A stretch of DNA of 64,000 nucleotides from Candidatus Bathyarchaeota archaeon (GCA_016927015.1 JAFGNM010000117.1:29182-93181); one strand, 5' to 3'; counted from the stretch's first letter, positions 3,318 through 29,100 are shown. Numbers and translations are program-made. Notes: a model not told the origin generated them from the letters alone.

Positions 3318-3504
3318 ACTCTGGCATTAGCCGAATCAACAAGATGAGTGTTCGATGTGATGACTGAAAAGTTCTTCGTATGTGTAGATGGAGTCTAAAT
3401 TAAAGATGGGAAACTCGCTTTTGGAGCTTTAGGAAAACGTCTTTAACAGGAAAATCGCACAAGTCTTAATATTAACTGGTCATTAAAAGGATTCAGGGGT
3501 CTGT

Positions 3505-6170: not shown

Positions 6171-7087
6171 AACTCCTTATCACAGGCGCAAGCGGTCTAT
6201 ATGGTTCAAAACTAGCTGAGCTGGCTACAGCAAGGAATTACAAGGTCTACTCTGGATACAGCCGAGACCAACCTGCTTACGGCGCTCCTATTCAGTTTGA
6301 TGTTTCAGACAAAAATCAGGTCGAAGAAGCATTCAAAAAAGCTAATCCAGAGGTCGTGGTGCATGCTGCCGCGTTAACTGATGTTGACAAATGTGAAATA
6401 AACAAAGAACTTGCTTGGAAAATAAACGTTGAAGGCACTAGAAACATTGCTGAAGCAGTTAAAACAAGCCGCGCTTTTCTAATCTACATATCCACAGACT
6501 ACGTATTCAACGGTGAAACAGGACGATATAGGGAGACTGACAGGCCCGACCCAATCAATTATTATGGTCTCACCAAGTTAAAAGCCGAAGAACTCGTTAA
6601 AGACTTGATTGGCGAATACTGCGTAGCAAGAGGCAGCGTCATTTATGGCTCAACTCCCGCAGCAGGCAAAGTCAACTTCGCCTTGTGGGTGCTCAATAAA
6701 CTCAAAAGGAACGAACAAGCGAAAATTGTAACTGACCAGTGGAACTCACCCACTTTGAACACAAACTTGGCTTATATGACGCTGGAAATCATTGAAAGTA
6801 AACTAACTGGAACCTTTCACCTCTCTGGAGCTACACGCATAAACCGATACGACTTTGCCAAACAAATAGCCAAAACTTTCAACTTGGATGCAACCTTGAT
6901 AAGCCCCAGTACATCAGCCGAGTTCTCATGGACCGCCAAAAGACCAAGAGACTCCTCACTTAACACTACAAAAGCTCAACAAACACTAAAAAGCAAACCA
7001 CTACAAATCAAGCAGGCAGTAAAAAGAATGAAACAGGAACTAACACAACTTCCTAAAGTTGCCCAGCCAGACCGCGTAGAAACTTGA
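6167..7087 (+). CDS. rmlD: dTDP-4-dehydrorhamnose reductase
   Basis: KLLITGASGLYGSKL, STDYVFNG and NYYGLTKLKAE motifs. The TTG at 6167 overlaps the rmlB stop (TTGA). The track ATG at 6101 would add 22 non-homologous residues that overlap rmlB. Confidence 0.85.
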   Translation: MKLLITGASGLYGSKLAELATARNYKVYSGYSRDQPAYGAPIQFDVSDKNQVEEAFKKANPEVVVHAAALTDVDKCEINKELAWKINVEGTRNIAEAVKTSRAFLIYISTDYVFNGETGRYRETDRPDPINYYGLTKLKAEELVKDLIGEYCVARGSVIYGSTPAAGKVNFALWVLNKLKRNEQAKIVTDQWNSPTLNTNLAYMTLEIIESKLTGTFHLSGATRINRYDFAKQIAKTFNLDATLISPSTSAEFSWTAKRPRDSSLNTTKAQQTLKSKPLQIKQAVKRMKQELTQLPKVAQPDRVET

Positions 7088-7138
7088 CTTCGTACTTCCC
7101 AGCCTTGTAGCGCGCTTGAACGTGCTTTTTTTGCGTGA

Positions 7139-7294
7139 AAAGCATGCCCTAAAGCTCTCAAGGGTGAGAGACAGGATTTCATTGCAAACTATGTGGTTGC
7201 TGACGCTGAGCATTTGCCTTTCAAGGGCGGCGTTTTTGATGTCGCCTTTTCCAGTCATGTGATTGAGCATGTTCATAATCCGTTTTTGATGTAA
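7139..7294 (+). pseudogene. relic of a class I SAM-dependent methyltransferase (only the C-terminal part of a Methyltransf_11-like domain)
   Basis: The frame reads ...NYVVADAEHLPFKGGVFDVAFSSHVIEHVHNPFLM*. This is the post-motif-I region of SAM methyltransferases. There is no start codon and no GxGxG motif upstream. The frame is closed by a TGA at 7136. Confidence 0.5.
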
Positions 7295-7439
7295 TGGCTA
7301 CTCAAGTCAAGTGTCAGCATAAGAGCAGAACATTGAAGGGAAATGTTAAATCGGTGGAGCATGCAAAGAGTTTAGCGCTGTTTAAGGAGAAATGGAGAAA
7401 AGCCTTGCCAGTTAGGACTACTACACGGATTGTGGAAGC

Positions 7440-8612
7440 TTGAAGATATTATTTGTTAACGTTATTGATTTGGAGAACGCTATCCATAAACGATATTATC
7501 CGTTAGCGTTTGGCTATTTGACAAGTTATTGTCGTAAGAACGGAGTTGAGTTCGAACCTTGTTACGCTGAGAAGCTGAATGAGGATATTTTGCGGACTTT
7601 TCAGCCAGATGTGGTAGCCTTGACCAGCATAACTGAAAATTACAATCTTGCTTGTTCTTATGCACACACAGTCAAAAAATTTAATCCTAAAATTAAAGTC
7701 GTAATTGGAGGAGTTCACATCTCTGCTGTTCCAGAAAGCTTGAGCCCAAGAATGGCTGTTGGAGTTTTGGGTGAAGGAGAGCAGACTTTCATGGAGCTGG
7801 TTAAAGCAGACTTTGAACCAAACGACAACATAAAGGGAATTGTTTATTGGGAATCTAAAAGTCTTCATCAGACCGAAGAGAGACCTCTCATTGAACCTTT
7901 AGACAGTATTCCTCATCCAGACAGAAGTCTATTCGGATTTGAGAATAGACCTCAATACATTTTTACCAGTAGAGGTTGCTGCTACAGATGCAAATTCTGT
8001 TCTTCCAGCAGATTTTGGAAGAAAGTAAGGTTTCACAGTCCAGAATACGTTGCTGAGGAAATCAGGCAACTTGAGGAACTGTTCCACGTAAGCAACGTTA
8101 ACATCTATGATGACCTTTTCATTATGGATGCTGAAAGGGTAAAGCGGATAAGGGACTTGGTTAAGCCTTTTGGTTTAACGTATTCGGTTGCTGCACGGGC
8201 TAACCTCGTAACAGATGATGTTGTATCTGCGCTTAAGGATATGGGCGTGACCGCAATCGGAATAGGAATGGAAAGTCATTCACAGAGAATCTTGGACTAC
8301 TTAGGTAAAGGTAATACAGTGGAGGATAATCAGCGAGCAGTTGACATCATAAGAAAACATAACATTCATCTTCATTGTTCCTTCATCAAAGGTGTTCCAA
8401 TTGAAACTAAAGATGACTTGAAAAAAACCTACACGTTTATCCAGAAGAACAATATTGCTTGCGATTTGTATGAGCTCATGCGGTTTCCTAACACTCCCAT
8501 TTATGAGGGTTCAAAGGATTGGAACGCTTGCAAAGTTCAGTATGCCGAGATACCATCGTATTATAGGTTGAGGCGCTTCGTTTCAAGGCAATTGTATAAA
8601 TTGAAAAATTGA
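7440..8612 (+). CDS. B12-binding-domain radical SAM protein
   Basis: 390 aa. The N-terminal region is B12-binding-like (MKILFVNV...VVALTS...). The radical SAM cluster motif is RGCCYRCKFCSS (CxxxCxxC). TTG start. Confidence 0.85.
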   Translation: MKILFVNVIDLENAIHKRYYPLAFGYLTSYCRKNGVEFEPCYAEKLNEDILRTFQPDVVALTSITENYNLACSYAHTVKKFNPKIKVVIGGVHISAVPESLSPRMAVGVLGEGEQTFMELVKADFEPNDNIKGIVYWESKSLHQTEERPLIEPLDSIPHPDRSLFGFENRPQYIFTSRGCCYRCKFCSSSRFWKKVRFHSPEYVAEEIRQLEELFHVSNVNIYDDLFIMDAERVKRIRDLVKPFGLTYSVAARANLVTDDVVSALKDMGVTAIGIGMESHSQRILDYLGKGNTVEDNQRAVDIIRKHNIHLHCSFIKGVPIETKDDLKKTYTFIQKNNIACDLYELMRFPNTPIYEGSKDWNACKVQYAEIPSYYRLRRFVSRQLYKLKN

Positions 8613-11067: not shown

Positions 11068-12126
11068 ATGAGCGCTACAGATGAGTCACTGCAAACTATC
11101 TTGGATGATATTTTAAGGGAATATGTAAGTAACGGCATGAAATTAATGGATCCCGCTTTGAATGAAGAAATTCGTGTGTTGGTAAAATCAAAATTAGCGA
11201 ATGTTCTTCTTGAAAGGCTGAAATCAAGGGTTCTGGATAAATTAGACGTGAGCAAGGAAATCGAAAAAGAGTTTGAAGATGCTGTTCTCAGAACTTGGAG
11301 AAAACCGCTTGATTTGTTGGATTTACTTTTGAATATTTGCTTTGAAGTTGCTAACGATTTCACTTCAGAATATGGAAGAGGAGCCTCTTCAAAACACGGT
11401 TGCGTTCAGGCTGCTTTGGCGAGGCAGCAGGCGAATGCTTGTTTGGTTTTTAATGAAATACTGCATCTTCTTAAAAGTGGATTTCCCAGCGGGGCCCATT
11501 CGCATTGGAGAACCTTGCATGAACTGGCTTGTATGTCTTACTTTATTTCTAAGCATGGAGAAGAGATGGCGAAGAGATTTTTGGATTATGAAGCAGTTGA
11601 GGTTTATTTTCAAGCTGAGGCGATTTATGAGCACCAGCAGAAGATGGAGTGTACCTCTCTGTCAGAAAGCGATTTTAAAGCGTTGAAGAGGGAATTTAAG
11701 GAGATGGAGAAAACCTATGGTTCTGACTTTGTTAAAAAGGTTAATTATCCGTATGGTTGGGTGCCTCGCACGGTTCTTAAAACGCGTTCTTTTAAAGAAA
11801 TGGAGAAGTCAGTGGAACTTGATACGTTTAGACCTTATTACGATTTGGCTGGTTACAACGTGCATGGGGGACAAAACGGGCTTATATTCAAACTGGGAAT
11901 CATGAAAAATAAGAATAAGCGTGTGGTTATTCCTGTTGGGCCAAGCAATTATGGATTGGCGGATCCGGGTAAAAGTGCGGCTATTTCGCTGGGTCAGGTT
12001 ACGGCGTGTCTTTTGCTAGCTGAATCTGGTGTCAAGAGGTTGGTAATTGTTGAAGCCTTGCGCAATTTAGTTGATGAAATCTGCGATGCTTTCTGTGAAA
12101 TCCAAGCAGAGTTTAGCAAAGATTAA
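11068..12126 (+). CDS. hypothetical helical protein, possibly DUF5677-like
   Basis: 352-aa ORF with clean codon structure. From memory, the segment ANACLVFNEILHLLKSGFPSGAHSHWRTLHELACMSYFI resembles the central helix pair of DUF5677/AbiV-like proteins. Not verified. Confidence 0.55.
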   Translation: MSATDESLQTILDDILREYVSNGMKLMDPALNEEIRVLVKSKLANVLLERLKSRVLDKLDVSKEIEKEFEDAVLRTWRKPLDLLDLLLNICFEVANDFTSEYGRGASSKHGCVQAALARQQANACLVFNEILHLLKSGFPSGAHSHWRTLHELACMSYFISKHGEEMAKRFLDYEAVEVYFQAEAIYEHQQKMECTSLSESDFKALKREFKEMEKTYGSDFVKKVNYPYGWVPRTVLKTRSFKEMEKSVELDTFRPYYDLAGYNVHGGQNGLIFKLGIMKNKNKRVVIPVGPSNYGLADPGKSAAISLGQVTACLLLAESGVKRLVIVEALRNLVDEICDAFCEIQAEFSKD

Positions 12127-12323
12127 AAAATCTAGTGGCTTTGTCTATTGGAAGATTTTAGACGGCAACTGTTCAGGTTCTAGCTGTTTTCCAATCCCTG
12201 CTGAAAGGAATCTAATGTTATTTTATGTGGTTTATTCTCTTCGCGTATATTGACATTTTTCAAAATAGGAGTCCCAGAAACTTTGGCTAAACATCATTGC
12301 CTCGCGGAATAATCTGTTTAGCT

Positions 12324-12485
12324 TTACATTTTGCAGTCTCTGTTGTCTTCCTTGGTTTTGCATTGTTCACAGAGGTCAGAAGGCGGTTCTACAGAGGTCT
12401 TTTGGTAGATGTACATTGGATACTGTGTGCAGTTCTTGCACCAATGCCACTTGTCGCTGTCGCTTCCTCTAACATACTCCACCAT
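12324..12485 (-). CDS. small Cys-rich zinc-ribbon protein (53 aa, below the ORF-track cutoff)
   Basis: Hand translation gives MVEYVRGSDSDKWHWCKNCTQYPMYIYQKTSVEPPSDLCEQCKTKEDNRDCKM*. It has two CxxC pairs 24 residues apart. The overlapping plus-strand ORF 12297-12509 looks like its shadow. Confidence 0.4.
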   Translation of the reverse strand: MVEYVRGSDSDKWHWCKNCTQYPMYIYQKTSVEPPSDLCEQCKTKEDNRDCKM

Positions 12486-12950: not shown

Positions 12951-13013
12951 CAGTAACTAGCGGGTCTTTTCGAGCTTGCTATTTGAGAAGCAACGTTGAT
13001 AGCGTTGCTTGTA

Positions 13014-13049
13014 CTATTAGATTGGGGTTCGAATCCCTTCCCCGGCGCT
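13014..13049 (+). repeat. tRNA 3-prime-end-like fragment (T-arm GGGGTTCGAATCCC plus acceptor-like CCCCGG), copy 1
   Basis: ATTGGGGTTCGAATCCCTTCCCCGG at 13021-13045 is identical to 20369-20393. The canonical T-loop TTCGAAT is present. No matching 5-prime acceptor strand or D-arm was found upstream. Confidence 0.7.
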
Positions 13050-13209
13050 GTTTTTCATTTAGAGGCCTGTTTTAGGTTATTCTAGGTAAATTACCTTGTT
13101 TTGCTACAAACTCCGGGTTATTGGCTGCTTGAGAAATGGCGTTTCCTCGGATATATATTAAAATAATTGCTGCTACAAAAGCAATTTAGGAATAAGTGTT
13201 AAATATGCC

Positions 13210-16200
13210 TTGTTTCCGACCATGTACCGAGGGGGAGAGGTTCTGAATAAATGGGTTTGTGCTGTCTTAGGGATCTTTCTCATACTGCTGTTGTGTGGCA
13301 CTGAAGCCATTGCCCCTTTTGAAAATTTTATAAATGCAGATTTGCCGCAGTCGCAAACCAGTACGGGTTTAAAAAGTGTTGTTGAAAGTCTGACGGCTTA
13401 CACTTCTCCTCAGGATCAGGTGGATTCTGATGGAGACGGCATCTACGATAGAGTAGAGGTTGTTATAGGAACCGACTTAAACAATACCGATTCAGACTTT
13501 GATCAGCTAACTGATTCTTACGAGATAGATAACGATTTAGATCCTTTGAGTCCTGATTCGAACAATGACGGATTAGCTGACTACTACGAAGTAACCGACG
13601 TGCTTTCTCTTGATGTTGATGGAGACAACGTCCCTAATGCTTGGGACTTCGACAACGATGGAGATGGCGTAGACGATGGTCTAGACTTGTCTCCTTTTGC
13701 CAAATCCACTATAAACAAAAGCTTCCATTTTGACATCGCAACAAATGGTTTACCCACGTACATTACCTTTCAATTGAGGCCACAGAATCCGGAATACCTG
13801 AAGCTTGTGAACCAGTTTTGGAACTGGCCGACTGACAAAGAAGGGATAATGAAAGATCTGGACAACTCCATGGAGGACGTGCAGGTTGTTCCAATGCTCA
13901 ATCTAAGCGCAAATATTATCCCTGAAGAATCCGAGGTAATAAATTATGGGATAACTACGGAATCAAACCAAGCATACGTTCCATTATACTCGGTTGCTGA
14001 ATTTGGAAATGTTGTGGCTTTCAGCGGCAAAATGTTCTATCCACTCGGTCCTTCGCTAAACCTCTCCATGAACGCGGAGCTAATCTGGCAAGTTATAGGC
14101 AAATCCGACGTGAACACTACGGCTTTACTAGCTCAAAATGGAAAATATATTTCCGTATTTGGCAGTGGAACAGTTGTTGCTAATAGTAGCGAAATCAGTA
14201 TCGGAGAAACGTTACAGTGGGTGGATTTAGGCGCCAATACGGCGGCTTTTAGAGCCTTCAACGGACTGTACTTGTCGGTCGCAGATAACGGCGCGATAGT
14301 TGCTAACGCTAGCGAAATCGGCGACCGCGAGATGTTCGAGTTAAGTGATAATGCAGGCGGCAGAACAGCTCTCAAGGCATACAATAAAAAGTACTTGACT
14401 GTCAACAGCGACGGGACTTTGGCGGCAAGTGGTACCGGAAAAAAATGGAATTATTATTACAAGCGATGGGTGTCTTATTCCGATTTTAAAATGGCTAAAA
14501 CAGATGTGCTTTCAGAAAATTTGGTTCTAGCTACCTACAAAGAGCCATTTATGCTCACAGGTCTTACGGTTGAAGAAAACTACGGCTCTAGTTTCGGGTT
14601 GTTTTTCAGCCATGACAAGAACCAAACAATAGCAGCCAACATCTTACTAGCCTATAACTTTCTAAGAAATTCAACAACTCAATTATCAGAAATGCCCGCC
14701 ATACTTGCCGAATACGATTCGGAAGTTTTCAGTCAAATCGATTGGTTCGGACACAAGGATGAAGCTTTAATATCGCTTGCAACTGAGGCAATGCCAAACG
14801 TTCTGAATTCACTACACGCAGGTGCAGGCTCGCAAATTCTGCCCATAATAACATCAATGGAGGATCATTTTGCTAGTCTTGACATGGCACAATTGATATC
14901 AGGCTCATACGTTATGGGCTCATATTGCAATGCGACTCTGAATTACGAACCCGTTGTGACTTCGAAGAGCTTGAAAGTGGATTTGTATAACACCACCAGC
15001 TACGAAGCCCTTGAAATAGACGAAATAATGGTCGAAGTAGAGCAGTGGGAACAAGACGAGGAAGCATCCTTCCAATTAATGAGTATGATCGCAGCTTGGA
15101 ACGCTGGCGAGCAGTTCATCACAAGCGTTGGTTCAAATAAAACGGAGTTCGATTTTTTTGGCGACTATTTGAATATCTTTAAGGATGTAGCAAAATATGG
15201 CTTTAAGACTTTCAAAGCTTATTCGCAGGCGTTTCGCGGTTATGAAGCATACCGAATCGTTAGTAGTACATTAACAAAACTAACCAAACAAGGTTGGAGC
15301 ATCGGCGGAAAAACTTTAAGCAGCATGTTTAAAGTTTGGAAAGCAAATTTCAAAAGAATTGGATCCGCTAAAACTGGCACATTTGCCGCTTTCAAGAGGA
15401 TAGGTTATGTCTTAGACATGGTTGGAGCGCTCCTTGAGACGGGGATAGCACTCTACTCGCTATTCCAGATCCTCGACAGCGGCTTGACCCCGATGGGCTT
15501 AAACACAGCTCTATTGAAACTGCTAATGACATATTTTTATTCGATGACGCTTGCAATGATTGGCGTTATTCCTGTTGTTGGCTGGCTAATCTCTTTAGCA
15601 ATCGCGCTATCTGATCTTATAGGCAACTGGTCAGAGAAACTTTTCAACGCAATCTTAGCTGCAATGACAAAAGTCACAGCTCAAGTAGATCCAAGCATCA
15701 GCCTTGCAGGCGAACCTTCGCTGTCAATAATTGATAAAGACGGAAATGGACTGGACGTTGGCGACCGTATTGAATACTATGCACGCATGATTGGTAAGGT
15801 CTCCAGTTGGGATTCCTGGTGTTTGAGCAGCAGCTACATTCATCCTTATGTTAAAATAGTAAATCCAGCCGGAACCAACTCCACAGTGGAACCTTTCTCT
15901 GAGACCTTATGGGGTTTTATGGCCAAAGATCTTGGAAAAAAGGGGAACGATATTTGGCTTTGGCTTCCGATACCGCCGAAGAGCACTTGGAACGTTACTT
16001 CAGGTCCAGGATGGCGCGCGCAGGAATATGACGTGGGCGGATGGATAGAGCCTGGAATAGCTATGCCAAATTTCCCAGTAACTGTTCAAACATATGCAGA
16101 ATACGAGCTTGCATATAAGTGGAAGCACTTCGTTTTCCTCGTGTTCTATGGCTTTTGGTGCCATCATAAAGGTCGTAATGCAGGCATAATGAAGTCGCAG

Positions 16201-18456
16201 ACGACCCCAATGGGTAGTGAAACGTTCTATTTTGATGTGCTTCCAGCTAGTCTTTCTGATTTCGTAAAGTGGAAGAGTATAAAGCGGCTCGACACAGACT
16301 TCGATGGACTAATAAATACAGCAGAGACTGCCAGTAGTCCTTTGTTATACGATACTGACGGAGATGGCTTGAATGACAAATACGAATTAGACACAGGTAC
16401 TAACCCAAAACTCTTCGATACAGACCAGGATGGATTAAACGACAAGCTTGAGCTAGTTTACGGCACAAACGCAACAGACATCGATACTGACGGCGACGGG
16501 CTTTCAGATTACGCAGAAATTACCGGTTGGATAAGTGTCTTCGACTACGAAGGAAACCAAGTTGTTTTACATGTAACTTCTAACCCGCTACTGCTTGACA
16601 CAGACGTCGATGGTTTGAATGACAACCTCGAATGCTCAAGCAGACTGAATCCGAAATCTAAAGATACTGACGGCGACGGAATTATCGATCAAGAACGAAC
16701 GCCTCCTGACCTGCCCGCATATCTTGTCGATAGTGATGAGGACGGGTTGAACGATAACGCCGAGGAAGTAGGTTGGAACATCGCCTTCACTAACGCAACA
16801 GACACCTACACTCTTACGGTTACGAGTGAGCCTTTGCTGAAAGACACAGATTTTGATGGTCTTACAGATTACCAAGAGTACAATATGTCATCTAACCCCA
16901 GAACCCCAGACACAGACGGCGACGGACTCAATGATTATTTTGAAAATGAATTAGGCACAAACCTTACCTTATTTGATACTGACGGCGACGGACTCGATGA
17001 TGGAACTGAACTAACCTTAAATGGCAGCCCAACAAGCAGCGATACTGACGGCGACGGATTGCTTGACCTTGACGAAATCAATTTAGGCACAGACTTGGGA
17101 AATAACGATACCGATTCAGACAAGCTCAATGACTTACAAGAGGTCCTATTTGGGTCTGATCCGACTTTGCCTGATACAGATGATGATTTATTGTTCGACA
17201 GTCAAGAATTCATTTTAGGCACTGACCCAACGTGTAATGACTCCGACACCGACGGTCTTCTCGACGGTTGGGAAATTATTTATGAGACTAACCCCTTGAA
17301 CAATGACTCCGACAACGACCTCGTTCTGGATGGAGAAGAGATCAAGTGGGGTCTGAATCCAACGTCGAATGACACCGACGTTGACGAGCTCCTGGATGGT
17401 ATCGAACTGCAACTGGGCACGGATCCCCGCAACCCTGACACCGACTTTGACGGATTACTTGACTCTGAAGATCCTGACACTTACGTTCCAAATGTGAAAC
17501 AGGTTGTCCTCGCCTTCGACTACAACTCGGATCCCACCGAATTCATAACGAACCTTTCATTGTACACCAATGTCACCGTTGTTTCACCTGAAGAGTTGCT
17601 CGAAAACTATTCAGGTGCCCCATACATTGTCCTGGTGGGCAGACCCAACACCGAGAACGGAACAGTTGGCAACATAATTTACAATCTCTTGCAGGATTCC
17701 GGAGAAGTCCTCGCAAACATGACAGAATCAGACGCTTATAGGTTTGCCATCCGTTATGGAGTATGGAACAACACACAGACTGTACTGACTCTTTCACAGC
17801 CCTATTTTGCAGATCACTTCAGAGTACTTGAAATTCTAAAAAGCAAAAACGTAACAATCCTGCCTGACTCTCTGACTGTTGACTACCAAATTCTTGCTGC
17901 CCCCGGATGCGACGTGGGCAATTACTCGATTTACTTCATCACAGACGAAATGGACATGGTTAAGACAACAGACTCTGTAATAGCAGTTGGCCTCGATGAG
18001 TCAGTAAAGCCTAGTGTTCAGATTAACAGATACAACGACACAACTACATCACATGTTCTGACCTATTGTTCTGGATTATCATGCTCCGAAAAAGCTGTTG
18101 GAAGGTATCTGGAAATAAAAGTAAGTGAAAACGTTCAGAACGCAACCAACGACAATCTCACAGCCGCTCTGATTCAAATCTACTATACAAAGGATGACTT
18201 GGATACAAACGGTGACGGAGACATAGATGATCCGGAAGATTTAGACGAGACTACTTTGGTGCTGTACTACTTCAGTGAGCATTTAGGTAAATGGACAAAA
18301 ATTGGCACGAACTTGGATTGGGTTATGGATATCGGAGTCAACTCTACAAATGTTGAGGTTTACGGCACGCAGTATGAAGGCTACATATGGGCTTATGTTA
18401 CGCAATTGCCTCCCTTCTATGCGATTGCGGGGAAGGAAATCGGGCAGGGCTGCTAA
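13210..18456 (+). CDS. giant (1748 aa) secreted or membrane-embedded protein with thrombospondin type-3-like Ca-binding repeats, a fascin-like beta-trefoil and an internal TM cluster
   Basis: N-terminal hydrophobic signal WVCAVLGIFLILLLCGTEAIA. DxDxDGxxDxxE repeats occur at about nt 13420-13690 and 16285-17470. A threefold NGKYISV/NGLYLSV/NKKYLTV repeat (14110-14440) is typical of fascin-type trefoils. Hydrophobic helices lie at about 15400-15630. The start may be the ATG at 13222. Confidence 0.85.
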   Translation: MFPTMYRGGEVLNKWVCAVLGIFLILLLCGTEAIAPFENFINADLPQSQTSTGLKSVVESLTAYTSPQDQVDSDGDGIYDRVEVVIGTDLNNTDSDFDQLTDSYEIDNDLDPLSPDSNNDGLADYYEVTDVLSLDVDGDNVPNAWDFDNDGDGVDDGLDLSPFAKSTINKSFHFDIATNGLPTYITFQLRPQNPEYLKLVNQFWNWPTDKEGIMKDLDNSMEDVQVVPMLNLSANIIPEESEVINYGITTESNQAYVPLYSVAEFGNVVAFSGKMFYPLGPSLNLSMNAELIWQVIGKSDVNTTALLAQNGKYISVFGSGTVVANSSEISIGETLQWVDLGANTAAFRAFNGLYLSVADNGAIVANASEIGDREMFELSDNAGGRTALKAYNKKYLTVNSDGTLAASGTGKKWNYYYKRWVSYSDFKMAKTDVLSENLVLATYKEPFMLTGLTVEENYGSSFGLFFSHDKNQTIAANILLAYNFLRNSTTQLSEMPAILAEYDSEVFSQIDWFGHKDEALISLATEAMPNVLNSLHAGAGSQILPIITSMEDHFASLDMAQLISGSYVMGSYCNATLNYEPVVTSKSLKVDLYNTTSYEALEIDEIMVEVEQWEQDEEASFQLMSMIAAWNAGEQFITSVGSNKTEFDFFGDYLNIFKDVAKYGFKTFKAYSQAFRGYEAYRIVSSTLTKLTKQGWSIGGKTLSSMFKVWKANFKRIGSAKTGTFAAFKRIGYVLDMVGALLETGIALYSLFQILDSGLTPMGLNTALLKLLMTYFYSMTLAMIGVIPVVGWLISLAIALSDLIGNWSEKLFNAILAAMTKVTAQVDPSISLAGEPSLSIIDKDGNGLDVGDRIEYYARMIGKVSSWDSWCLSSSYIHPYVKIVNPAGTNSTVEPFSETLWGFMAKDLGKKGNDIWLWLPIPPKSTWNVTSGPGWRAQEYDVGGWIEPGIAMPNFPVTVQTYAEYELAYKWKHFVFLVFYGFWCHHKGRNAGIMKSQTTPMGSETFYFDVLPASLSDFVKWKSIKRLDTDFDGLINTAETASSPLLYDTDGDGLNDKYELDTGTNPKLFDTDQDGLNDKLELVYGTNATDIDTDGDGLSDYAEITGWISVFDYEGNQVVLHVTSNPLLLDTDVDGLNDNLECSSRLNPKSKDTDGDGIIDQERTPPDLPAYLVDSDEDGLNDNAEEVGWNIAFTNATDTYTLTVTSEPLLKDTDFDGLTDYQEYNMSSNPRTPDTDGDGLNDYFENELGTNLTLFDTDGDGLDDGTELTLNGSPTSSDTDGDGLLDLDEINLGTDLGNNDTDSDKLNDLQEVLFGSDPTLPDTDDDLLFDSQEFILGTDPTCNDSDTDGLLDGWEIIYETNPLNNDSDNDLVLDGEEIKWGLNPTSNDTDVDELLDGIELQLGTDPRNPDTDFDGLLDSEDPDTYVPNVKQVVLAFDYNSDPTEFITNLSLYTNVTVVSPEELLENYSGAPYIVLVGRPNTENGTVGNIIYNLLQDSGEVLANMTESDAYRFAIRYGVWNNTQTVLTLSQPYFADHFRVLEILKSKNVTILPDSLTVDYQILAAPGCDVGNYSIYFITDEMDMVKTTDSVIAVGLDESVKPSVQINRYNDTTTSHVLTYCSGLSCSEKAVGRYLEIKVSENVQNATNDNLTAALIQIYYTKDDLDTNGDGDIDDPEDLDETTLVLYYFSEHLGKWTKIGTNLDWVMDIGVNSTNVEVYGTQYEGYIWAYVTQLPPFYAIAGKEIGQGC
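16285..17470 (+). repeat. array of about 20 TSP3-like calcium-binding repeat units inside the giant ORF
   Basis: Recurrent DTDGDGL(N/S/D)D peptide units. DNA-level near-repeats such as gatactgacggcgacgga(c/t)t occur near 16670, 16910, 16975 and 17040. Confidence 0.85.
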
Positions 18457-18459
18457 AAA

Positions 18460-20184
18460 ATGAAAAAGATTAAACGCATATGCATTCTATCGATTACTCT
18501 TCTACTTCTGCTTTTGGTGTCAGCAATGTCTGCACAAAGTGAAACCGCGCCTCCAACAGGGTTAAACTCACTTTTTTACACGCCAAATGGGACTATTTTG
18601 CTCAGTTACAGCAATAACACATATTTTGTTGTTAAAGACTCCCTCGGCGTTATCTCTTGGAACGGCACACTAGACAAAGGAACCATTATGCAATTACCTC
18701 TCGAAGCTGGGATCTACTCAGTTAGCGCCTCTAAACCTTACACGCTACTTGTTGGTGCTCCCCAAACAGAAAGTGTAGTCGGCTATTTTGCAATTGACGC
18801 AAATGGCAAAGGAACGAGCAAAGATTTATACTCGTACATACCGCCTCCTGATCCTTTGTATGCTGGCAACAGGTTCATTATTTTTTCTTACGAAGAAGAT
18901 ACTAATGTTACCGTAACAGATGTAAATACTGACGCCGTTCTGTGGCAAGGAATTCTCAACGAGAGCCAGCACTTCAGTCAAGACCTAAACAATTCTACAT
19001 GGCAGAACAAAACTGTTCACGTAGAATGCAATAAGCCAGTTTCAGCACTGTGCTACCTTGACCAAGGCTTTATCGTGCCTTCATCTACCGGACTTTTTAC
19101 CGGGAATCTGTTCTACGCTTTCGCTAGTAACATTACCAACGGCAACAACGACCTAAATGTAATTGGGTACCATGACAACACTGAGATTACCATAACCAAC
19201 ACGATTTCGCAGGCTCTAATCTGGAACGGAACCCTACACACCGGAGAAGTTCACAGCGAAGTTTTCGCAAAACCCACTTATCTGACTGTTGAGAGCAACC
19301 AAAGCGTTGCCGTAACAGTTGATCCATACCCAACTTGGCCAATAATGTATCAAGCAGCATTGTACGCATCAGACGTCAATGGAAACTTTATTGGAAACCA
19401 ATTCTTTGCTACAGCAAGAGGAGGCGGATACCTCCGCATTTTAGCCTACGCAAATGACACTAATGTGAGCGTGACGGATCAAACAACGTCTACCTTGCTT
19501 TGGAATGGAACATTGAATAGAATGGAGTCATATACAGGACCGACGTCGCATACAGTTTATAAAATTACGAGTGACAAGTATGTTTCAGTGCTGGAAGGAT
19601 ATGGTGGATGGAGCTCCGCATTCGCCCCCTTATACTACACAATTGACACGCAGCCACCAACAATAGGCACACCTATCCATGTGCCGCAAAATCCTACAGC
19701 AACACAAGATGTTCAAGTAAATGTGGACGTGATTGATGACATGAGCGGGGTCCAAATGGTAATTCTCTCTCACAGTGATGACACATTATGGCAAAACATC
19801 ACTATGACGTGGAGCGGAGGAAACACTTACACTGCAAACATAACCACGCTCCCTTCTCAGACACAACTGAAATACAAACTCATCGCATATGACAACCTTA
19901 ACAACACAGCGACAAGCAGCCAAACAACCCTAACAGTCACCCCTCAACCTTCCCCAACACCTTCACCTACACCAAGTTCATCGCCCTCTCCTACCCCATC
20001 ACCTTCTCCTACTTCATCTCCAAGTCCCTCGCCTTCTCCTTCTCCGAGTATCTCGCCGTCGGCGCCACCATCAAAACCTTTTACCATGGAGCCTTTCTCT
20101 GTGCTGTTTATTGTAGCGGGTATAGTAATAGTAGCTTTGGTTGCAATGGGTCTCAGGCTATACTTCAAGAAACGTAATCAGTGA
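18460..20184 (+). CDS. secreted surface protein with four internal beta-domain repeats, a Pro/Ser/Thr linker and a C-terminal TM anchor
   Basis: Signal peptide ILSITLLLLLLVSAMSAQS. Repeats are marked by ISWNGTL, LWQGIL, IWNGTL and LWNGTL. The linker is PSPTPSPTPSSSPSPTPSPSPTSSPSPSPSPSPS. The tail is a terminal hydrophobic helix followed by KKRNQ. Confidence 0.8.
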   Translation: MKKIKRICILSITLLLLLLVSAMSAQSETAPPTGLNSLFYTPNGTILLSYSNNTYFVVKDSLGVISWNGTLDKGTIMQLPLEAGIYSVSASKPYTLLVGAPQTESVVGYFAIDANGKGTSKDLYSYIPPPDPLYAGNRFIIFSYEEDTNVTVTDVNTDAVLWQGILNESQHFSQDLNNSTWQNKTVHVECNKPVSALCYLDQGFIVPSSTGLFTGNLFYAFASNITNGNNDLNVIGYHDNTEITITNTISQALIWNGTLHTGEVHSEVFAKPTYLTVESNQSVAVTVDPYPTWPIMYQAALYASDVNGNFIGNQFFATARGGGYLRILAYANDTNVSVTDQTTSTLLWNGTLNRMESYTGPTSHTVYKITSDKYVSVLEGYGGWSSAFAPLYYTIDTQPPTIGTPIHVPQNPTATQDVQVNVDVIDDMSGVQMVILSHSDDTLWQNITMTWSGGNTYTANITTLPSQTQLKYKLIAYDNLNNTATSSQTTLTVTPQPSPTPSPTPSSSPSPTPSPSPTSSPSPSPSPSPSISPSAPPSKPFTMEPFSVLFIVAGIVIVALVAMGLRLYFKKRNQ

Positions 20185-20361
20185 ACTGAAAAGTTCATCA
20201 TTTTCGCTTCCTACTTCTTTAGGGGACGTTTGAATTTAAACCGACGACCTTCACCTGGAAAAAGCATGTAAGACAGGTACTATATTGTAACCTACTAAAT
20301 CGAATGTATGCAAAATCAGCAGAAGAAGAAAATGTGGCTCTCACGAATTCCCTCATTTTTA

Positions 20362-20397
20362 CTAGTAAATTGGGGTTCGAATCCCTTCCCCGGAGCT
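20362..20397 (+). repeat. tRNA 3-prime-end-like fragment, copy 2
   Basis: ATTGGGGTTCGAATCCCTTCCCCGG at 20369-20393, in the same orientation as copy 1. The flanks are also partly similar (CTAgTAa / CTAtTAg upstream, xGCT downstream). Confidence 0.7.
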
Positions 20398-20546
20398 AAT
20401 CTCTATGATTTGGCGCCTATTTTGACAGTATTTTAAAAAGCTCCTTTTATAAAGGGGTGAAAATTCAGAACTTTACCCCTGTGCAAGGGGCAAAACCCTT
20501 ATAGGACCACTTCTTGTCTCTTTGCTAAAGTTTGTATTTGGTTCAA

Positions 20547-22016
20547 TCATCTTGGGACCACGACAAGGAATGGTTCTGGTTCTGCTTCTTTGCTTGCATA
20601 ACACGCTAAGGCTAAAGCGAAAAGCTGATCATCATGCCTGCCCCGTGGATGGCGAAACTTTATGTGTATGCGCTCTTGAGCAGTGTTTGGCTTCAGATAC
20701 TCGTATTGCTGCTCGTTGATTTGAGCGATTAACTGTTTGTCTTCGCCTCGGATGCGGAGCTGTTTTTTCTCCATTAGCAGTTTCATATAGTTCAGCATGT
20801 TTTCCTTCTCAGCGTCGGTGAAGAATACGCCTTTAATGTTTGGAATGTCTAAGTTTTCCAACTCGTCTACTATAGCGTCGCCTATTCCTGTCTTGTCTAC
20901 GTAGATGCCTTCAAGGTCAAGGGTTTGGTGAGTTCTTGCTACATAGGCGATGACTTCTGGGTAAGGCGTACCCAAAGGAAACTCTCGTTTATGCACCAAG
21001 CGGACCAAGTTGTTATCGGTTAGCTCTGCTATGGCTAAGACGCTGTGGTCTACCTGTTTGCCTAAGTCTAAACCAGCAAAGTACTTGCGACGGAGTTGTG
21101 TGGGTTTTACGTGTTCTATGTCTTCGATGTACTGGTTTGGTGAAGCTGGATTATCAAGCTCTGGGTCGATGCAGGTTGCTATGAGGTCCAGTGGGAAGAA
21201 CGTTTGTGTTGATTCTATCCATAGTGCTTCGACTTCTCTTTGCCATTCTTCTCGGGTCATCATGTCGCGCCATTCTGCAAGTTGCTGCTCGCTTACGAGT
21301 GGGCTGGTGTTGCTTGGGTAGTGGTGTACGGAGTAGCGTTTTTGGTCTAGGAAGGCTTTGTGGAAGACGTGTTCGAACGCCATCGGGGTTCCGCTCATGA
21401 TTAGTGCAGCGTTGGGTTTTGTAAGCATCATTAGTATTTCGCTTGTTATCATTTCGCTGGGGATGATGCTTGCTTCATCTAAGAATATGTAGTCCGGGTG
21501 GTAGCCCCTGAGCTTGTTTGGAGAGCACGGCAGCGCCACGAGTTTGCCGTTTAATGGAGATTTAAGCTTGATCGTGGTGCGTGAAGTTCCTGGTCGCTGG
21601 AGCATCTCGCGCATGAGCGGGTTTACTGTAGCGGTGGTGTAGCAGTAGTCAAACATTATCATGCTTTGGCGTTGGGTGCTGCTTATGATGAGGCTTTCGA
21701 TGTCGGGTTTGGTGTAGAGAAGCCAGAGGTTCTTTCGGCTGAAAACAAGGCTTTTTCCCCAGCCTCTTCCGCAAACGGCTACTTGTCTTGGTTGCGGGTC
21801 TCGCAGAAGTTTCTGGTGGTCTGGCGCGTTGATTAGCCATTTGTCGCCGCACATCAGCACTGCGAAGAAGACGGGGTCTTCAACGAGTTTGCGTGTTACT
21901 TCCGTGTGGGCGATTAGCTGTTTGAAGGCTTTGGGACGCTGCTTTAGCCCGCTATATGCTTGGGCTGCGAATGTCCAGTCGCTTAGGACTTTTTGTACGA
22001 AAGCCGCCTCTTCCAT
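20547..22016 (-). CDS. terL: terminase large subunit (ATPase plus RNase-H-like nuclease)
   Basis: 489 aa. Walker A is CGRGWGKS, Walker B is PDYIFLDEAS, and the coupling motif is SGTP. The C-terminal nuclease acidic motifs are AGLDLGKQVDHSV, VDKTGIGD and GRHDDQ. Confidence 0.85.
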   Translation of the reverse strand: MEEAAFVQKVLSDWTFAAQAYSGLKQRPKAFKQLIAHTEVTRKLVEDPVFFAVLMCGDKWLINAPDHQKLLRDPQPRQVAVCGRGWGKSLVFSRKNLWLLYTKPDIESLIISSTQRQSMIMFDYCYTTATVNPLMREMLQRPGTSRTTIKLKSPLNGKLVALPCSPNKLRGYHPDYIFLDEASIIPSEMITSEILMMLTKPNAALIMSGTPMAFEHVFHKAFLDQKRYSVHHYPSNTSPLVSEQQLAEWRDMMTREEWQREVEALWIESTQTFFPLDLIATCIDPELDNPASPNQYIEDIEHVKPTQLRRKYFAGLDLGKQVDHSVLAIAELTDNNLVRLVHKREFPLGTPYPEVIAYVARTHQTLDLEGIYVDKTGIGDAIVDELENLDIPNIKGVFFTDAEKENMLNYMKLLMEKKQLRIRGEDKQLIAQINEQQYEYLKPNTAQERIHIKFRHPRGRHDDQLFALALACYASKEAEPEPFLVVVPR

Positions 22017-22483: not shown

Positions 22484-22708
22484 TTATTTTTCTCTGATGA
22501 GTTTCAGGAATTCCTCTTTTGTCAAACCTGCCTCCGCGATGATTTCCATTAGTAATCCTCTTTTTATTTCTCTGTGTTTGGGAACAGGTATTATGTTTTC
22601 GTTTTTGGTGAGAATTAGATGGCTTCCTTTTTGGCGAACAACTTGAAAACCAGCTTTTATGAGAGCTTTTACAACTTTACGCCAAGAGAGCAGAGGGAGC
22701 TTCGACAA
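22484..22708 (-). CDS. hicA: HicA-family mRNA interferase toxin
   Basis: 74 aa. LSWRKVVKALIKAGFQVVRQKGSHLILTK is the classic HicA (YcfA) dsRBD-like signature including GSH. Confidence 0.85.
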   Translation of the reverse strand: MSKLPLLSWRKVVKALIKAGFQVVRQKGSHLILTKNENIIPVPKHREIKRGLLMEIIAEAGLTKEEFLKLIREK

Positions 22709-22910
22709 TTACTTCAGCCTTTTCCCCTTTGACCCTGCGACCTAAGAGTTTTGTTTTAACTTCCAAGTAGCCTTCTATTGCTTCCTTGATGTTTTTTAAT
22801 GCTTCTTCCTTTGTTTCGCCTTGTGTTGCTACCGGTAGCTCAAGACACTTGACTATGAAACCGCCTTCTTCAGCAGGCTCCAAAACAACTGTAAACTTGC
22901 GAGTAACCAT
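22677..22910 (-). CDS. hicB: HicB-family antitoxin (UPF0150)
   Basis: MVTRKFTVVLEPAEEGGFIVKCLELPVATQGETKEEALKNIKEAIEGYLE matches the HicB N-terminal fold pattern. It overlaps hicA. Confidence 0.8.
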   Translation of the reverse strand: MVTRKFTVVLEPAEEGGFIVKCLELPVATQGETKEEALKNIKEAIEGYLEVKTKLLGRRVKGEKAEVIVEAPSALLA

Positions 22911-22955
22911 GTATTTGCACAACCATGGATAAGAGTTTGATGCGGCTATAAGAAC

Positions 22956-23132
22956 TTATCTTAGTGAACTACGATAATATATAATGTTGATGTAGAACCT
23001 TGAGAGTTTATGCAGAAAGTCGTCCCGCTGATTCACAACTTTCTCGTAAGCCCTCGCTAATTTGACTTTCGCCTTAACCCTATTCCGTGAGTCTTTCTTC
23101 TTTCGTGACAGAACTTTGTGCGCTATTAGTAT
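22956..23132 (-). pseudogene. tnpB: relic of an IS200/IS605-family TnpB (OrfB)
   Basis: Hand translation gives ...HKVLSRKKKDSRNRVKAKVKLARAYEKVVNQRDDFLHKLSRFY.... This matches the conserved central TnpB block (RKKKGSKNR..A..K.A.LH.KI.NQR.DF.HK.S). Only about 58 codons are open. Confidence 0.65.
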
Positions 23133-23212
23133 TCCAGAGAGTGTTTATAGAATTTGGCTTGTTTTGTGCTGTGACTTGTAGGGGGACGCTTGCTTGTTGT
23201 CCCGAATTTAGT

Positions 23213-23485
23213 TTATGATTTTTGGATTGTTTTTAGGATGGCAAGAACTCCCGCATTTGCCGCTCTTTTTTCAAGATAATCGTCATCCAGTTTGCCCGCT
23301 TGCCTGACGAGTACGCTTTTCACGTCTTCAGCTTCCAGATAAGCTTGGATTGCTTCCTTGATTCTTTTCATAACTTCATCAAGTGTTTTGGCTTGCGTGT
23401 GGCAACCTGGCAGTTCAGGAACAGAAGCAACATAATAACCCTCTTCATCTTTTTCAACCACTACACCAAACTTCACTATGCTCAC
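23213..23485 (-). CDS. orphan HicB-like antitoxin (UPF0150)
   Basis: 90 aa. FGVVVEKDEEGYYVASVPELPGCHTQAKTLDEVMKRIKEAIQAYLE matches the family pattern. There is no adjacent hicA. Confidence 0.75.
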   Translation of the reverse strand: MSIVKFGVVVEKDEEGYYVASVPELPGCHTQAKTLDEVMKRIKEAIQAYLEAEDVKSVLVRQAGKLDDDYLEKRAANAGVLAILKTIQKS

Positions 23486-26170: not shown

Positions 26171-29100
26171 TTAAGCGCGTTTACGCCTTTTTTTAACAGC
26201 GTACACGGACACGCCAAGGAAAAAAATCACGTTGAATGCCACATTGTAAGAAGAACTCAATACTTCAACCCAGTTAATAGTTGGCTTAGATGTTGTTTCA
26301 TCAGCAAGGTTCAGAACAGTTCCTTCAGCTTTAAAATTTGAAAACATTGTTAGGGGGTAACTGATGTATAGAGTGTCGAATTTTACGTTACCTCGAATTT
26401 CAGCTTTCTGTTGGACAATACCTTCGAGCGGAACGTAAAGAGCAGAGTGCACATCAAGCTGGTCAAAGATGATTGTTCCAGAAGCGTTTATTGAGGGTAA
26501 TCTGGCATATATGGACAGCCCGCTGGTTTTGAATGTGAAGGAAACTGGCACATCAGAGTTATAAACGACCTCGTCATCTGCAACTATTAAAGCGTTCTTG
26601 TCAAGGAGCACTTCGCCTTCGATAGGATAACTTTCGGGTTTAATCAGCAGATATGATTCTGAGGGAGAAACTATTAACGTTGCGTTTTTAATCACCAAAT
26701 TGGTTTTACCGCAAATTTCAATTTCTGTAAATTGGTTGACTGAAAAAGGCGAGTTCGTCAAGTTTATTGTACCTTGCAACTTTAAAACATCCGTCTCGAG
26801 TTGTAAGTCACCTGTTACCTGCATGTAGCCAAAAGCTGAGTTGTACACTGGAAGTGCGTCTATCGGGGGGTAAGAGTAGTTTAGAGCTAAGAGGTCGTTG
26901 ACTTTATCTAAAAATTCTGTTTGCAATATTGCGGATTCGGTTCCAGCAGCTAACATAGGAAATGAGTTTACATAAAGTACCTGTCCTAAGCCGATTTGGG
27001 TCACGGACAGGAGAGGTGAGGAGTAGTTTATGCCTGTCAAACTCGCGAAGAAACCGTTTCCATAAGTGTTGAAAACAATTAAGGTATTACCAGCTGAAAC
27101 CCATTTTGAAAGGCTTTCAACAGGAATTGACGGGTCAGATGGTAGCATAATGTGCGTGTATTGATTGAGGTACGCATCCAGATTTTTGAAAGAAGTTTCA
27201 TCTACGTAGAGAGCTGAATAATTTGTGTGACGAAGAGAAACAAATAGTGAGGGTAAAACGTCCTCTTCTAAATAGAGTTCCGATGATATTTTTATGTTTT
27301 CGATTTGTGCGGAGGCAAAGGTTTGGGACGGTGAATTGTTGCGTGTCTCGACTATGGCCTCTATTCTCGTTATTATTTGGTTATCAGGTAAGGGGTATGA
27401 TTTTGTTGTGAAAGTTGTGTCGGCTAATTGTCCTTGGTAGAAAAAGAAACGTTTAGAGGCGTTTTGAATAATAATTGTAAACCAGGTGTTGTCGTTGTCT
27501 ACTTTGTATCGGAAGGATAAGATGGAATTTTTAGTTTGCAGGTTCAGAGGATACGAATAACTCACCCATGTGTTTCCGCTCTGATTTGAAAGAAGGTTTA
27601 TGTTGTAAACGTTTCCGTCAGAATACGCGTTACACTCGGATATATTTCCGTATTTTTGGTAGAATTCCCAATCTTTCATGAAAGTATCATCGTCAAACGT
27701 TGTTGTTGGAGCTGAAAACTGTATGAAATCCATATACGCCTGTGCGGTTGTCTCTATTGGTGCTTCATTAACGGTTTCCACAATAACTTCGATTTTGGTG
27801 ATAGTCTGGTTTTCGGGAAGAGTAAATCTTTTTGTTGTGAAGTCGGTGGCAGATAAGTGTCCAGAGTAAAAGAATACGTGGTCTGTTGAATTCCTTAGCT
27901 GAAAGGTAAACCATGCTAGATTGTTTTCCACATGGTATCTGAAGGAAAGCGTTTGGTAAAATGTGGTATTTAGAGAGAGTCCTGAACTGGACCAACCTGC
28001 CCAAATGTTACCTGTTTGATTCGAAGTTACTGATGTAGCCATGATTCCGTTGGAAACCTCTAGTTCGTAATCGCTAATGTTTCCATATTGCTTAAACGCG
28101 CTCCACCCTTGTGTGAAGGAGTCATCTATCCATGTTGTATTCTCAAGGTTGGAAATTGAAGGAGCGAAATTTAAAACGCCGAGGGATGCTTCTTGTGATG
28201 GCGGGGTTAAAGATGGAACTTCGTATATAGTCACATGATCGTTTTTCATAACTGTTGGAAAATATTCAAAGAAGTAGCCTAATGTATTTGAGTTCAGAAG
28301 GTCAGCATCTCTTTGTGCAATGTAGATGTACTTAATGTTAGATGAGCCTAGAATGTAGTTTATTATGTATGGGTTAGATGTTGAGAGTAGAAGTTTAGAC
28401 CAGCGTTGGGCGTCTTGTACAGCGTTCAACCCTGCATAGTTTTCGAGGTTATTGGCTGACTCGGTGGTGAAAGTCAGAACGCTTGCGTTAGTTGGAGTAT
28501 TTTGTTTAATGTAGTCGAGAGCGGAAGATTCGTCTTGTGTTATTTGGTTATTTATGGAGTAATAGGACGCATTGGCGTAGAATAAAGTAGTGCTGATCAT
28601 TCCAGAAAGTATGAGAAAGCCGAGAAGTGCAGATGCAATTATCTTACTTTTGGGTGATTGCTTTACTTTGTCTATAATCTTTGTAAAGCCGTATGCCGCT
28701 ATTATACAAGCACCGATAAAAATCAGGGTTCCATATCTGTAAGCAGGATAATAGGGGTAGTAATTAGCTGTTTGCTCTAACAAGAAACCTGTTGGAATTA
28801 AAATAAGGAAGAAAAGCAATGCTTTATTTTGTATAATTTTCTTGAAATAAATGATGATGGAGAGGACCGCTAATAGACCCACTGCGCCAAGCCGCACAGG
28901 CAGTACAAAAAACGGTGTGAAAGTTAAACCGCCCCATGCCCAAAGATTAAAATCGTTTACGACTGTGAGCCAAATTATAAAAAGGAGCAGGTAGGCATAT
29001 AATAAAACCCACCTTAAATACATCCAGCTTTTTCCCAACTTTTCCAAGAAAGAATCCTGAATATTCTTTGAAAAAAGAAGTGCACACCTATCTTTCGCTA

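Follow-up and report, generated by a model that had tools for sequence, protein, structure and literature searches.

The DNA analyzed here, which we call the window, is a 64,000-nucleotide (nt) stretch of one strand of a contig from Candidatus Bathyarchaeota archaeon (GCA_016927015.1, JAFGNM010000117.1:29182-93181). It contains a 7.3-kb cassette of two cargo genes bracketed by direct repeats of a tRNA gene fragment, and the origin of this arrangement is our subject. The first cargo gene (13210..18456, + strand) is an open reading frame (ORF) for a giant protein of 1748 amino acids (aa) with bacterial TSP3 repeats and a Fascin/FRG1-like domain (Pfam TSP3_bac 1.2e-16, FRG1 1.8e-12 and Fascin 6.8e-11), and the second (18460..20184, + strand) is an ORF for a 574-aa partner; Pfam finds no recombinase domain in either. 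The repeat, ATTGGGGTTCGAATCCCTTCCCCGG (25 nt), has just two exact copies in the window, each on the + strand: copy 1 at 13021..13045 and copy 2 at 20369..20393, a copy-to-copy spacing of 7,348 bp. With up to three mismatches allowed there is no further match to it in the window, and the expectation by chance is 0 (100 dinucleotide shuffles). The two copies are alike over 41 nt without gaps (90%; 13009-13049 versus 20357-20397), beyond which their flanks show no significant likeness (z=1.8 upstream and 0.1 downstream). The preliminary description of this locus had reported identical repeats in the same orientation that enclose two genes, and that is what is found.

Both repeats come from tRNA-Ser(CGA), a gene with an intron in Bathyarchaeia, and correspond to its 3' end, namely the T-arm and the 3' acceptor strand. 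When the 22-nt core of the repeat, GGGGTTCGAATCCCTTCCCCGG, was scanned against one genome per prokaryotic species, it was found at no fewer than 119 loci (i.e., at least 119), mostly from metagenome-assembled genomes of Bathyarchaeota/Bathyarchaeia, and in about 110 non-redundant contexts among the matches listed it forms the 3' end of a single tRNA gene. This parent gene consists of GCCGGGGTGGCGGAGTGGTTATCGCGCCAGCCTCGAGATC, an intron of ~30-40 nt, AGCTGGTGGGCTTCGTGCTCGCA, the core and CGCCA; ARAGORN with introns allowed types it as tRNA-Ser(CGA) with the intron at position 38, and the Rfam tRNA model gives the genes of the relatives 47-50 bits. The direct repeats match the last 22-25 nt of this gene, and they therefore take in the T-loop, the 3' strands of both T-stem and acceptor, and all but one of the five bases on the 5' side of the T-stem. 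The tRNA-derived part of copy 1 (13024-13048) runs through the T-stem, T-loop, 3' acceptor strand and discriminator G to the first C of the CCA, and its 25-mer is identical to the 3' end of the relatives' full tRNA-Ser(CGA) genes, while that of copy 2 (20372-20393) leaves the tRNA sequence at the last acceptor base, where position 20394 has an A in place of the C.

Neither copy belongs to a recognizable tRNA gene. ARAGORN, ARAGORN with introns allowed (-i) and Rfam at its gathering threshold find no tRNA gene in the window, and within 500-600 nt surrounding each copy the Rfam tRNA model yields no match even at E<=10; the Rfam model and ARAGORN with introns both detect the true gene in relatives. 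The 5' half of a tRNA-Ser was not found in the window, and in the partial copies the first T-stem pair is T-T instead of A-T, because the base before GGGG is T and not A. The proposal that both repeats are partial tRNA copies thus stands, and a tRNA search of the window with intron models, of the kind that the preliminary description had advised, places neither of them in a functional tRNA. A tmRNA-like (transfer-messenger RNA-like) or minihelix RNA was considered and rejected, since the sole Rfam signal is a 13-nt T-loop and there is no 5' acceptor strand. In its default mode ARAGORN missed the intron-containing tRNA-Ser genes in every Bathyarchaeota locus checked, so that attachment (att) sites of this kind resemble orphan tRNA fragments, a point that deserves attention in genome annotation.

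The relatives' loci were handled as fixed contig blocks, and neighbouring blocks were joined to reconstruct arrays. Seven contigs hold both a full tRNA-Ser and partial copies, and all eight partial copies on them lie downstream of the tRNA on the same strand, the first of them 5.4-22 kb away. In PKYH01000053 the tRNA core is at 12,354 and fragments are at 17,759 and 20,374 (spacings 5,405 and 2,615 bp); the core and the single fragment are at 189,511 and 196,726 in PLYI01000120 (7,215 bp), at 1,292,148 and 1,301,886 in CAWEPZ010000011 (9,738 bp), and at 384,197 and 405,890 in OY969560 (21,693 bp). Three metagenome contigs complete the set: L138 (core 5,680, fragment 12,346; 6,666 bp), L130 (core 6,124, fragment 496, on the - strand; 5,628 bp), and L140, with a full tRNA-Ser(CGA) at 4033-4144 and a partial copy at 12306 (8,185 bp). 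PKYH01000053 and CAWEPZ010000011 have common genes upstream of the tRNA and different array content behind it, and the NikR-ZnuABC genes, which follow closely after the tRNA in CAWEPZ010000011, come after two inserted segments (8 kb) in PKYH01000053. The cargo of the segments between sites includes a major facilitator superfamily (MFS) transporter, TrmB regulators, a hydrolase, a flavin reductase, GH130, a glycosyltransferase, SPFH, an insertion sequence (IS) transposase and a pyrroloquinoline quinone (PQQ) propeller protein. In Bathyarchaeia the tRNA-Ser(CGA) gene is a hot spot at which insertions recur. Upstream of it are core genes (ribosomal proteins L3/L4, SRP54, PNP and PhoU), and an integron-like layout with an integrase upstream of the tRNA was rejected for this reason. 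We note that an IS110-family transposase gene (DEDD_Tnp_IS110, Transposase_20) lies at 7003-7902 (-) of L011, just past the second tRNA-Ser fragment of that array.

The 574-aa partner has 33 homologues, and a giant TSP3/Fascin gene precedes the partner gene in every context examined; the gene pair was found in only two GTDB representatives, and the left junction of the window cassette has no match in GTDB genomes. In L140/L141 a homologous pair (63% aa identity) lies directly between the full tRNA-Ser(CGA) and the partial copy, which has a palindromic arm and two substitutions. The sequence after the L140 tRNA is homologous to that after window copy 1 (z=13.1), and the sequence before its fragment to that before window copy 2 (z=3.8), whereas the outer sides of the cores are unrelated between the two loci (z=0.8 and 0.0). 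Homology of the window with L140 is thus restricted to the cassette side of both cores and breaks at the att core, as it should at the ends of an island; a parent tRNA at one end is present for the homologous cassette of L140 and absent from the window. Each window junction also has a counterpart elsewhere. In L135 the copy 1 junction is conserved (left arm, core and a 69% identical N-terminal part of the giant gene), and the sequence downstream of its partial copy is related to window 13046..13209 (z=7.6). In L131, a contig from a sister sample of that of L135, the copy 2 junction is conserved (partner C-terminus, an 85% identical arm with z=20.6, and core), and this junction is followed by an H+-pyrophosphatase gene where the window has a terminase gene.

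Other homologous pairs lie in different surroundings. In L146 the pair has tRNA-Leu(UAA) on one side and, on the other, an att-like site whose palindromic arm is of the same kind and whose tRNA-Leu 3' fragment has decayed; in L142-L144 it stands between direct repeats of a different tRNA-like fragment, whose arm also differs; in L147/L156/L157 a convergent tRNA-Arg(CCG) gene follows the partner gene; and in L139/L145 and L155 the pair is among core genes with no att-like site. The pair is therefore a patchily distributed module, usually adjoining tRNA genes or fragments: att junctions bracket it at three kinds of tRNA-derived site, and it adjoins a fourth tRNA gene. Strict conservation of the cassette together with both fragments in distant relatives, which had been named as an observation that would speak against a mobile origin, is not seen; the arrangement with two Ser fragments varies, because pairs also occur at tRNA-Leu, beside tRNA-Arg and without an att site.

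The sequences that flank the cores are themselves conserved among arrays. The left, element-side arm of copy 1 (12966..13020, +) has a decayed palindrome (TACTATTAG) and a hairpin at 12990-13008, and is followed on the other side of the core by the cassette-side arm and upstream region of the giant gene (13046..13209, +) with its conserved promoter-like AATAAGTGTTAAATATG. The left, cassette-side arm of copy 2 (20284..20368, +) has an intact palindrome, TTACTAGTAA, at 20359-20368 (-13 from the core), and the right arm of copy 2 (20394..20435, +; AGCTAATCTC...TTTGGCGCCTATTTTGAC) is by alignment of a type found after tRNA-Ser or its fragments in other arrays; its homology to L131 is weak (z=2.5), and L140 shows none (z=0.0). 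The ~80-nt left arm of copy 1 is homologous to those of L125, L126, L133/L138, L134/L136 and L135 (z=9.8 for the last). The palindrome-like motif directly upstream of the core in att-like sites has the exact form TTACYRGTAA, with TA/CG variants that keep the symmetry, and the exact palindrome occurs again at +122 to +125 after the tRNA or fragment in nine sites; presumably it is a protein-binding part of the site. The same arm is found at the att-like site that flanks the tRNA-Leu fragment of L146. An nhmmer profile built from 22 non-redundant att-like partial sites of relatives, all chosen for having such a motif at position -13 relative to the core, has only two matches in the 64 kb, 12966-13101 (E=2e-18) and 20284-20435 (E=6e-22), and so detects no further att remnant in the window. 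Several palindrome-type Ser fragments of relatives have reverse-complement tRNA 3'-end-like fragments (e.g. GCTGGGATTTGAACCCAC) 45-60 nt upstream (L077 ~1685-1705 and 4300-4325, L038 ~4270-4290, L122 and L094), which may be att remnants of elements that target other tRNAs.

A second arm is also conserved: an A-rich run and, after it, GCGGGTGAYATCTCCACT lie ahead of tRNA-like T-arm/acceptor fragments in a number of loci (L142 4133-4180 and 12317-12365; L011 6222-6264; L130 649-663 (-); L131 899-913 (-); L137 1843; L103 1888-1902 (-)). A variant of it, the A-rich GCGGGAG... arm, is found past the integrase stop codon in two IMG/VR viral contigs (L153 and L154), followed in L153 by ATATCTCC; this arm is likewise found ahead of the Ser core in L011 and L095, and flanking the gene pair in L142. 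The second arm looks like the element-side arm of the integrase-bearing family. Minimum free energy (MFE) folds of seven copies show no common structure, and a structured RNA in the left arm and in the GGTGAYATCTCCACT element was rejected.

A candidate integrase for this site is present in relatives. A tyrosine integrase gene with an N-terminal zinc ribbon abuts the same Ser core in ~11 loci. In one class of right arm, the sequence CGCCAxCAACATACTTTTGGACAAATCCCC... turned out to be this gene's 3' end; the gene lies on the opposite strand and stops 40 nt from the core. The integrase gene of L118 is full length (454 aa; Pfam Phage_integrase, PF00589, 1.4e-18; phrog_1 2.9e-27), and the gene is degraded in ~10 loci (L033, L058, L114, L120, L123, L126, L011, L009, L084 and L048). 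Seven IMG/VR viral contigs carry relatives of it (41-55% identity), most of which sit at the extreme end of a contig of 32-44 kb. Palindrome-type junctions lie directly beside an integrase gene in five loci, and no recombinase adjoining the palindrome-type arms was found in the array segments searched. We infer that the L118-type integrase family made the window junctions. In L120 an Rfam DUF3800-X RNA (60.9 bits; 7772-7845, -) lies inside the degraded integrase-bearing segment, beside a tRNA-Ser fragment.

Taken together, the identity of the repeats, the array structure in relatives, the integrase gene that adjoins the core in other genomes and homology that breaks off at the cores make it very probable that the window repeats are att junctions left by site-specific integration at the 3' end of tRNA-Ser(CGA), and that the cassette is one unit of a stack of such insertions. 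DNA would integrate by site-specific recombination into the tRNA gene's 3' end, each integration would regenerate the tRNA and displace the previous 3' end outward, and successive events would build a same-strand stack of tRNA, segment, fragment, segment and fragment. The 7.3-kb segment with the giant TSP3/Fascin protein gene and its 574-aa partner would then be one integrase-less unit of such a stack, which we infer was once joined to the tRNA. Having no integrase the cassette is non-autonomous, and it could be moved at most in trans, for example by the 454-aa zinc-ribbon tyrosine recombinase that abuts the core elsewhere. Both 25-nt cores are perfectly preserved beside decayed flanks, which is compatible alike with fairly recent events and with continued use of the sites. 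The preliminary description had suggested that integrative elements leave such copies and that the cassette was captured between serial integrations at one tRNA; the former is supported by the copies downstream of an intact tRNA on the same strand and by the integrase beside the same core elsewhere, and the latter by the L140 layout and the homology that ends at the cores.

Several observations weigh against this interpretation. The window contains no integrase detectable by tblastn with a C-terminal fragment of the L118 family or by a scan for the box II motif, in agreement with the earlier statement that none is present. The parent tRNA-Ser is found neither in the window nor in 9 kb recovered to the left of it, and the stack must therefore be very long or have been separated from its tRNA. 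Since only two att-like sites occur in the 64 kb, the outer ends of the neighbouring segments are unmarked. The cassette shows no compositional anomaly, its G+C content being unremarkable. The array segments of relatives carry mostly ordinary cargo, in which neither integrase pseudogenes nor genes for replication or virions can be traced, so an origin of each segment as a decayed provirus is not demonstrated; and no IMG/VR contig holds the Ser core, as a free phage attachment site (attP) would.

Two explanations would dispense with integration. One or both copies could be the 3' half of a split or otherwise unconventional tRNA that is joined in trans to a distant 5' half. The T-arm and 3' acceptor strand are indeed intact, the sequence directly upstream of the core is self-complementary, and 15 nt upstream of copy 1 the hairpin GCAACG-TTGATAG-CGTTGC (12990-13008) has a perfect 6-bp stem and an anticodon-loop-like 7-nt loop (GAU; TTGATAG). 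However, the homologous arms of relatives keep the TGATA and not the stem of this hairpin, an intact full-length tRNA-Ser(CGA) is present in all seven contigs that hold both a tRNA and partial copies, and the broken first T-stem pair, the altered last acceptor base of copy 2 and the two substitutions in the L140 fragment also speak against it. The searches that recognize the true gene in relatives report no cloverleaf here, no 5' half was found in the window, and we rejected a split or 3'-half tRNA as scarcely credible. It is also very improbable that the repeats are a small mobile or regulatory element (a unit like a miniature inverted-repeat transposable element, a terminator or a promoter module) that merely resembles a tRNA end and has no relation to integration. 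The conserved unit is short, and the palindrome with the T/A-rich motif downstream (TTTGGGCTTATTTTGGC), a possible promoter, would suit such an element, but the core matches the true tRNA-Ser 3' end identically, discriminator and CCA included, its copies lie only downstream of tRNA-Ser and on its strand (8/8), homology between genomes breaks exactly at it, and an integrase gene abuts it.

A third explanation accepts integration and differs from the stack of att junctions in holding that the sites are live and not scars: palindrome, core and arm would be a dedicated site for each integrase-less cassette, in an active platform like an integron or a cis-mobilizable element (CIME), where an integrase acting in trans shuffles, captures and excises. 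The perfect cores between diverged flanks could be so explained, as could the conservation of the arms beside unrelated cargo and even beside cores from different tRNAs (Ser and Leu), cassettes of 2.6-9.7 kb without mobility genes, the presence of the same gene pair between att junctions at tRNA-Ser, tRNA-Leu and a third tRNA-like fragment, and the five palindrome-type junctions directly beside an integrase gene. On the other hand, no circle junction and no precise empty site for the cassette was found, a scan of JGI data showing no such junction. There is thus no evidence of current excision, which the preliminary description had offered, along with exchange, as another role of the repeats, and IMG/VR has no free attP. 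The differing array positions can be explained by later insertions at the tRNA without any mobility of the cassettes, the copy 1 palindrome has decayed along with the last acceptor base of copy 2, the distal L140 fragment has two substitutions, and the integrase copies beside arrays are mostly pseudogenes. We consider this explanation unlikely. In its widest form, Bathyarchaeia would run an integron-like cassette system at tRNA genes, with a zinc-ribbon tyrosine integrase that captures, reorders and excises in trans at tRNA-Ser, tRNA-Leu and others, and each cargo unit may then have a composite site of a 10-bp palindrome, the tRNA-derived core, a conserved arm and a second palindrome ~138 bp on; such a system is a speculative idea to which we give some limited credence.

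The assembly graph bears on excision as well. In the Logan assembly of SRR13394437, one contig (_1093857, L128; 7,367 bp) corresponds to window 13027-20393 and ends inside the two repeats, and the next contig (_5253196, L129) begins at 20364 with a 30-nt overlap. At k=31 the cassette contig thus has a branch node at each end. Another att copy of the L134/L136 type (CGCTGTTTTTC then C) would account for the branch at 13056/13057, and any ordinary palindrome-core-CGCC copy for that at 20393/20394. The breakpoints are thus explained by other att copies with the same 30-mers, and the separate contig was therefore rejected as evidence for a circular form. Many of the partner-gene homologues are on contigs of ~6-8 kb, which suggests that assemblies commonly break at these att sites. 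A Logan contig also supplied the 9 kb to the left of the window; it carries glycosylation genes and no Ser core.

The stack of att junctions has likenesses to several known systems. Integron arrays also have stacked short cargo units with a recombination-site-like repeat between them and no mobility gene inside. Here, in contrast, there is no IntI, attI or attC (the last made of imperfect inverted repeats, R''-L''/L'-R', containing GTTRRRY), the units are set apart by a tRNA 3' end that carries a 10-bp palindrome, and the window cassette appears to have its own promoter-like upstream region; an integron was rejected on the grounds that no tyrosine recombinase was found in the window and the repeat is not attC. 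In Streptococcus thermophilus, CIMEs and integrative and conjugative elements (ICEs) include integrase-less segments flanked by att sites that accrete in tandem at one site, and mobilization in trans has been shown experimentally. The window cassette has the same core as the integrase-bearing junctions and no integrase of its own, and tandem accumulation is common to both. CIMEs are the nearest functional analogy; they are bacterial and not archaeal, and mobilization in trans is here only a possibility.

The Islander catalogue (PMC4383910) lists islands recognized by a regenerated tRNA together with its displaced 3' fragment, some of them in tandem at a single tRNA gene. In them, as here, a direct repeat of the 3' part of the tRNA marks the end, fragments follow downstream of the tRNA and share its strand, several segments stack up at a single tRNA, and autonomous members have a tyrosine integrase beside the att site. 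The window unit differs in having neither tRNA nor integrase and in being internal, between two displaced fragments, and most array units carry ordinary cargo. Bathyarchaeia have head-tailed proviruses whose limits are set by a tRNA gene, direct repeats and an integrase (PMC11705971). Host class and boundary logic are the same, the right neighbour of the cassette is a terminase gene, and the integrase relatives end IMG/VR contigs of 32-44 kb, whereas the bracketed 7.3-kb segment contains no viral gene. Archaeal integration of the Sulfolobus spindle-shaped virus (SSV) type splits the integrase gene (PMC7253208, PMC8371274). Although this also occurs in an archaeal host with the 3' part of a tRNA as att core, the integrase gene described here is intact and ends 40 nt outside the core, and no Int fragments flank the window cores; SSV-type integration was rejected because the core is outside the integrase ORF and no integrase-like ORF lies beside either window copy.

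The neighbours of the cassette in the window are mobile-element material, which also favours a stack of insertions. To its right, the gene at 20547..22016 (-) encodes a terminase large subunit of 489 aa (phrog_2 E=9.8e-34; Pfam Terminase_6N only 0.001), and 22484..23485 (-) contains genes for a HicA toxin, a HicB-like antitoxin and a second HicB-like protein (Pfam HicA_toxin 8.2e-19, HicB_lk_antitox 2.3e-11; PHROGs); this segment, with both the terminase and the HicA/HicB genes, is of viral origin. To its left, 11068..12126 (+) encodes a DUF5677 protein of a phage-associated family (Pfam DUF5677 3.2e-23; phrog_27456 6.7e-45). The preliminary description had placed a terminase remnant on the right and a ribbon-helix-helix (RHH) gene on the left: the terminase is confirmed and the label of remnant not adopted for this 489-aa protein, and the RHH gene has no Pfam support. 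The HicA/HicB-like pair (22484-22922, -) is 77-83% identical in protein sequence to a pair at 3276-3723 (-) of L048, which lies ~200 nt upstream of a full tRNA-Ser(CGA) and is the closest match to a window protein among the fetched tRNA-Ser loci. Further to the right, a second giant ORF (26171-30544, -; 1457 aa, no Pfam match) heads a long run of minus-strand genes. Between 30000 and 40000 the G+C content is 0.35-0.38, versus 0.42-0.50 elsewhere in the window, and the minus-strand ORFs are of 224-414 aa; several of these have weak blastp matches (24-28% identity) to ORFs of the fetched loci, including L138 10842-12011, which Pfam assigns to the group-1 glycosyltransferases.

The window unit is an integrase-less genomic islet targeted to a tRNA, a feature of an ordinary kind and a tidy example of it. 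Its analysis names the parent gene of the repeat, tRNA-Ser(CGA), as the hot spot in an abundant and largely uncultured archaeal class, and it places the giant surface-protein gene pair in the flexible, insertion-prone part of Bathyarchaeia genomes. If an integron-like system at tRNA genes were real, it would mean a fast turnover of cell-surface genes in these archaea. The candidate integrase and the 25-bp core with its conserved arms are a possible tool for site-specific integration in a lineage that has no genetic system.

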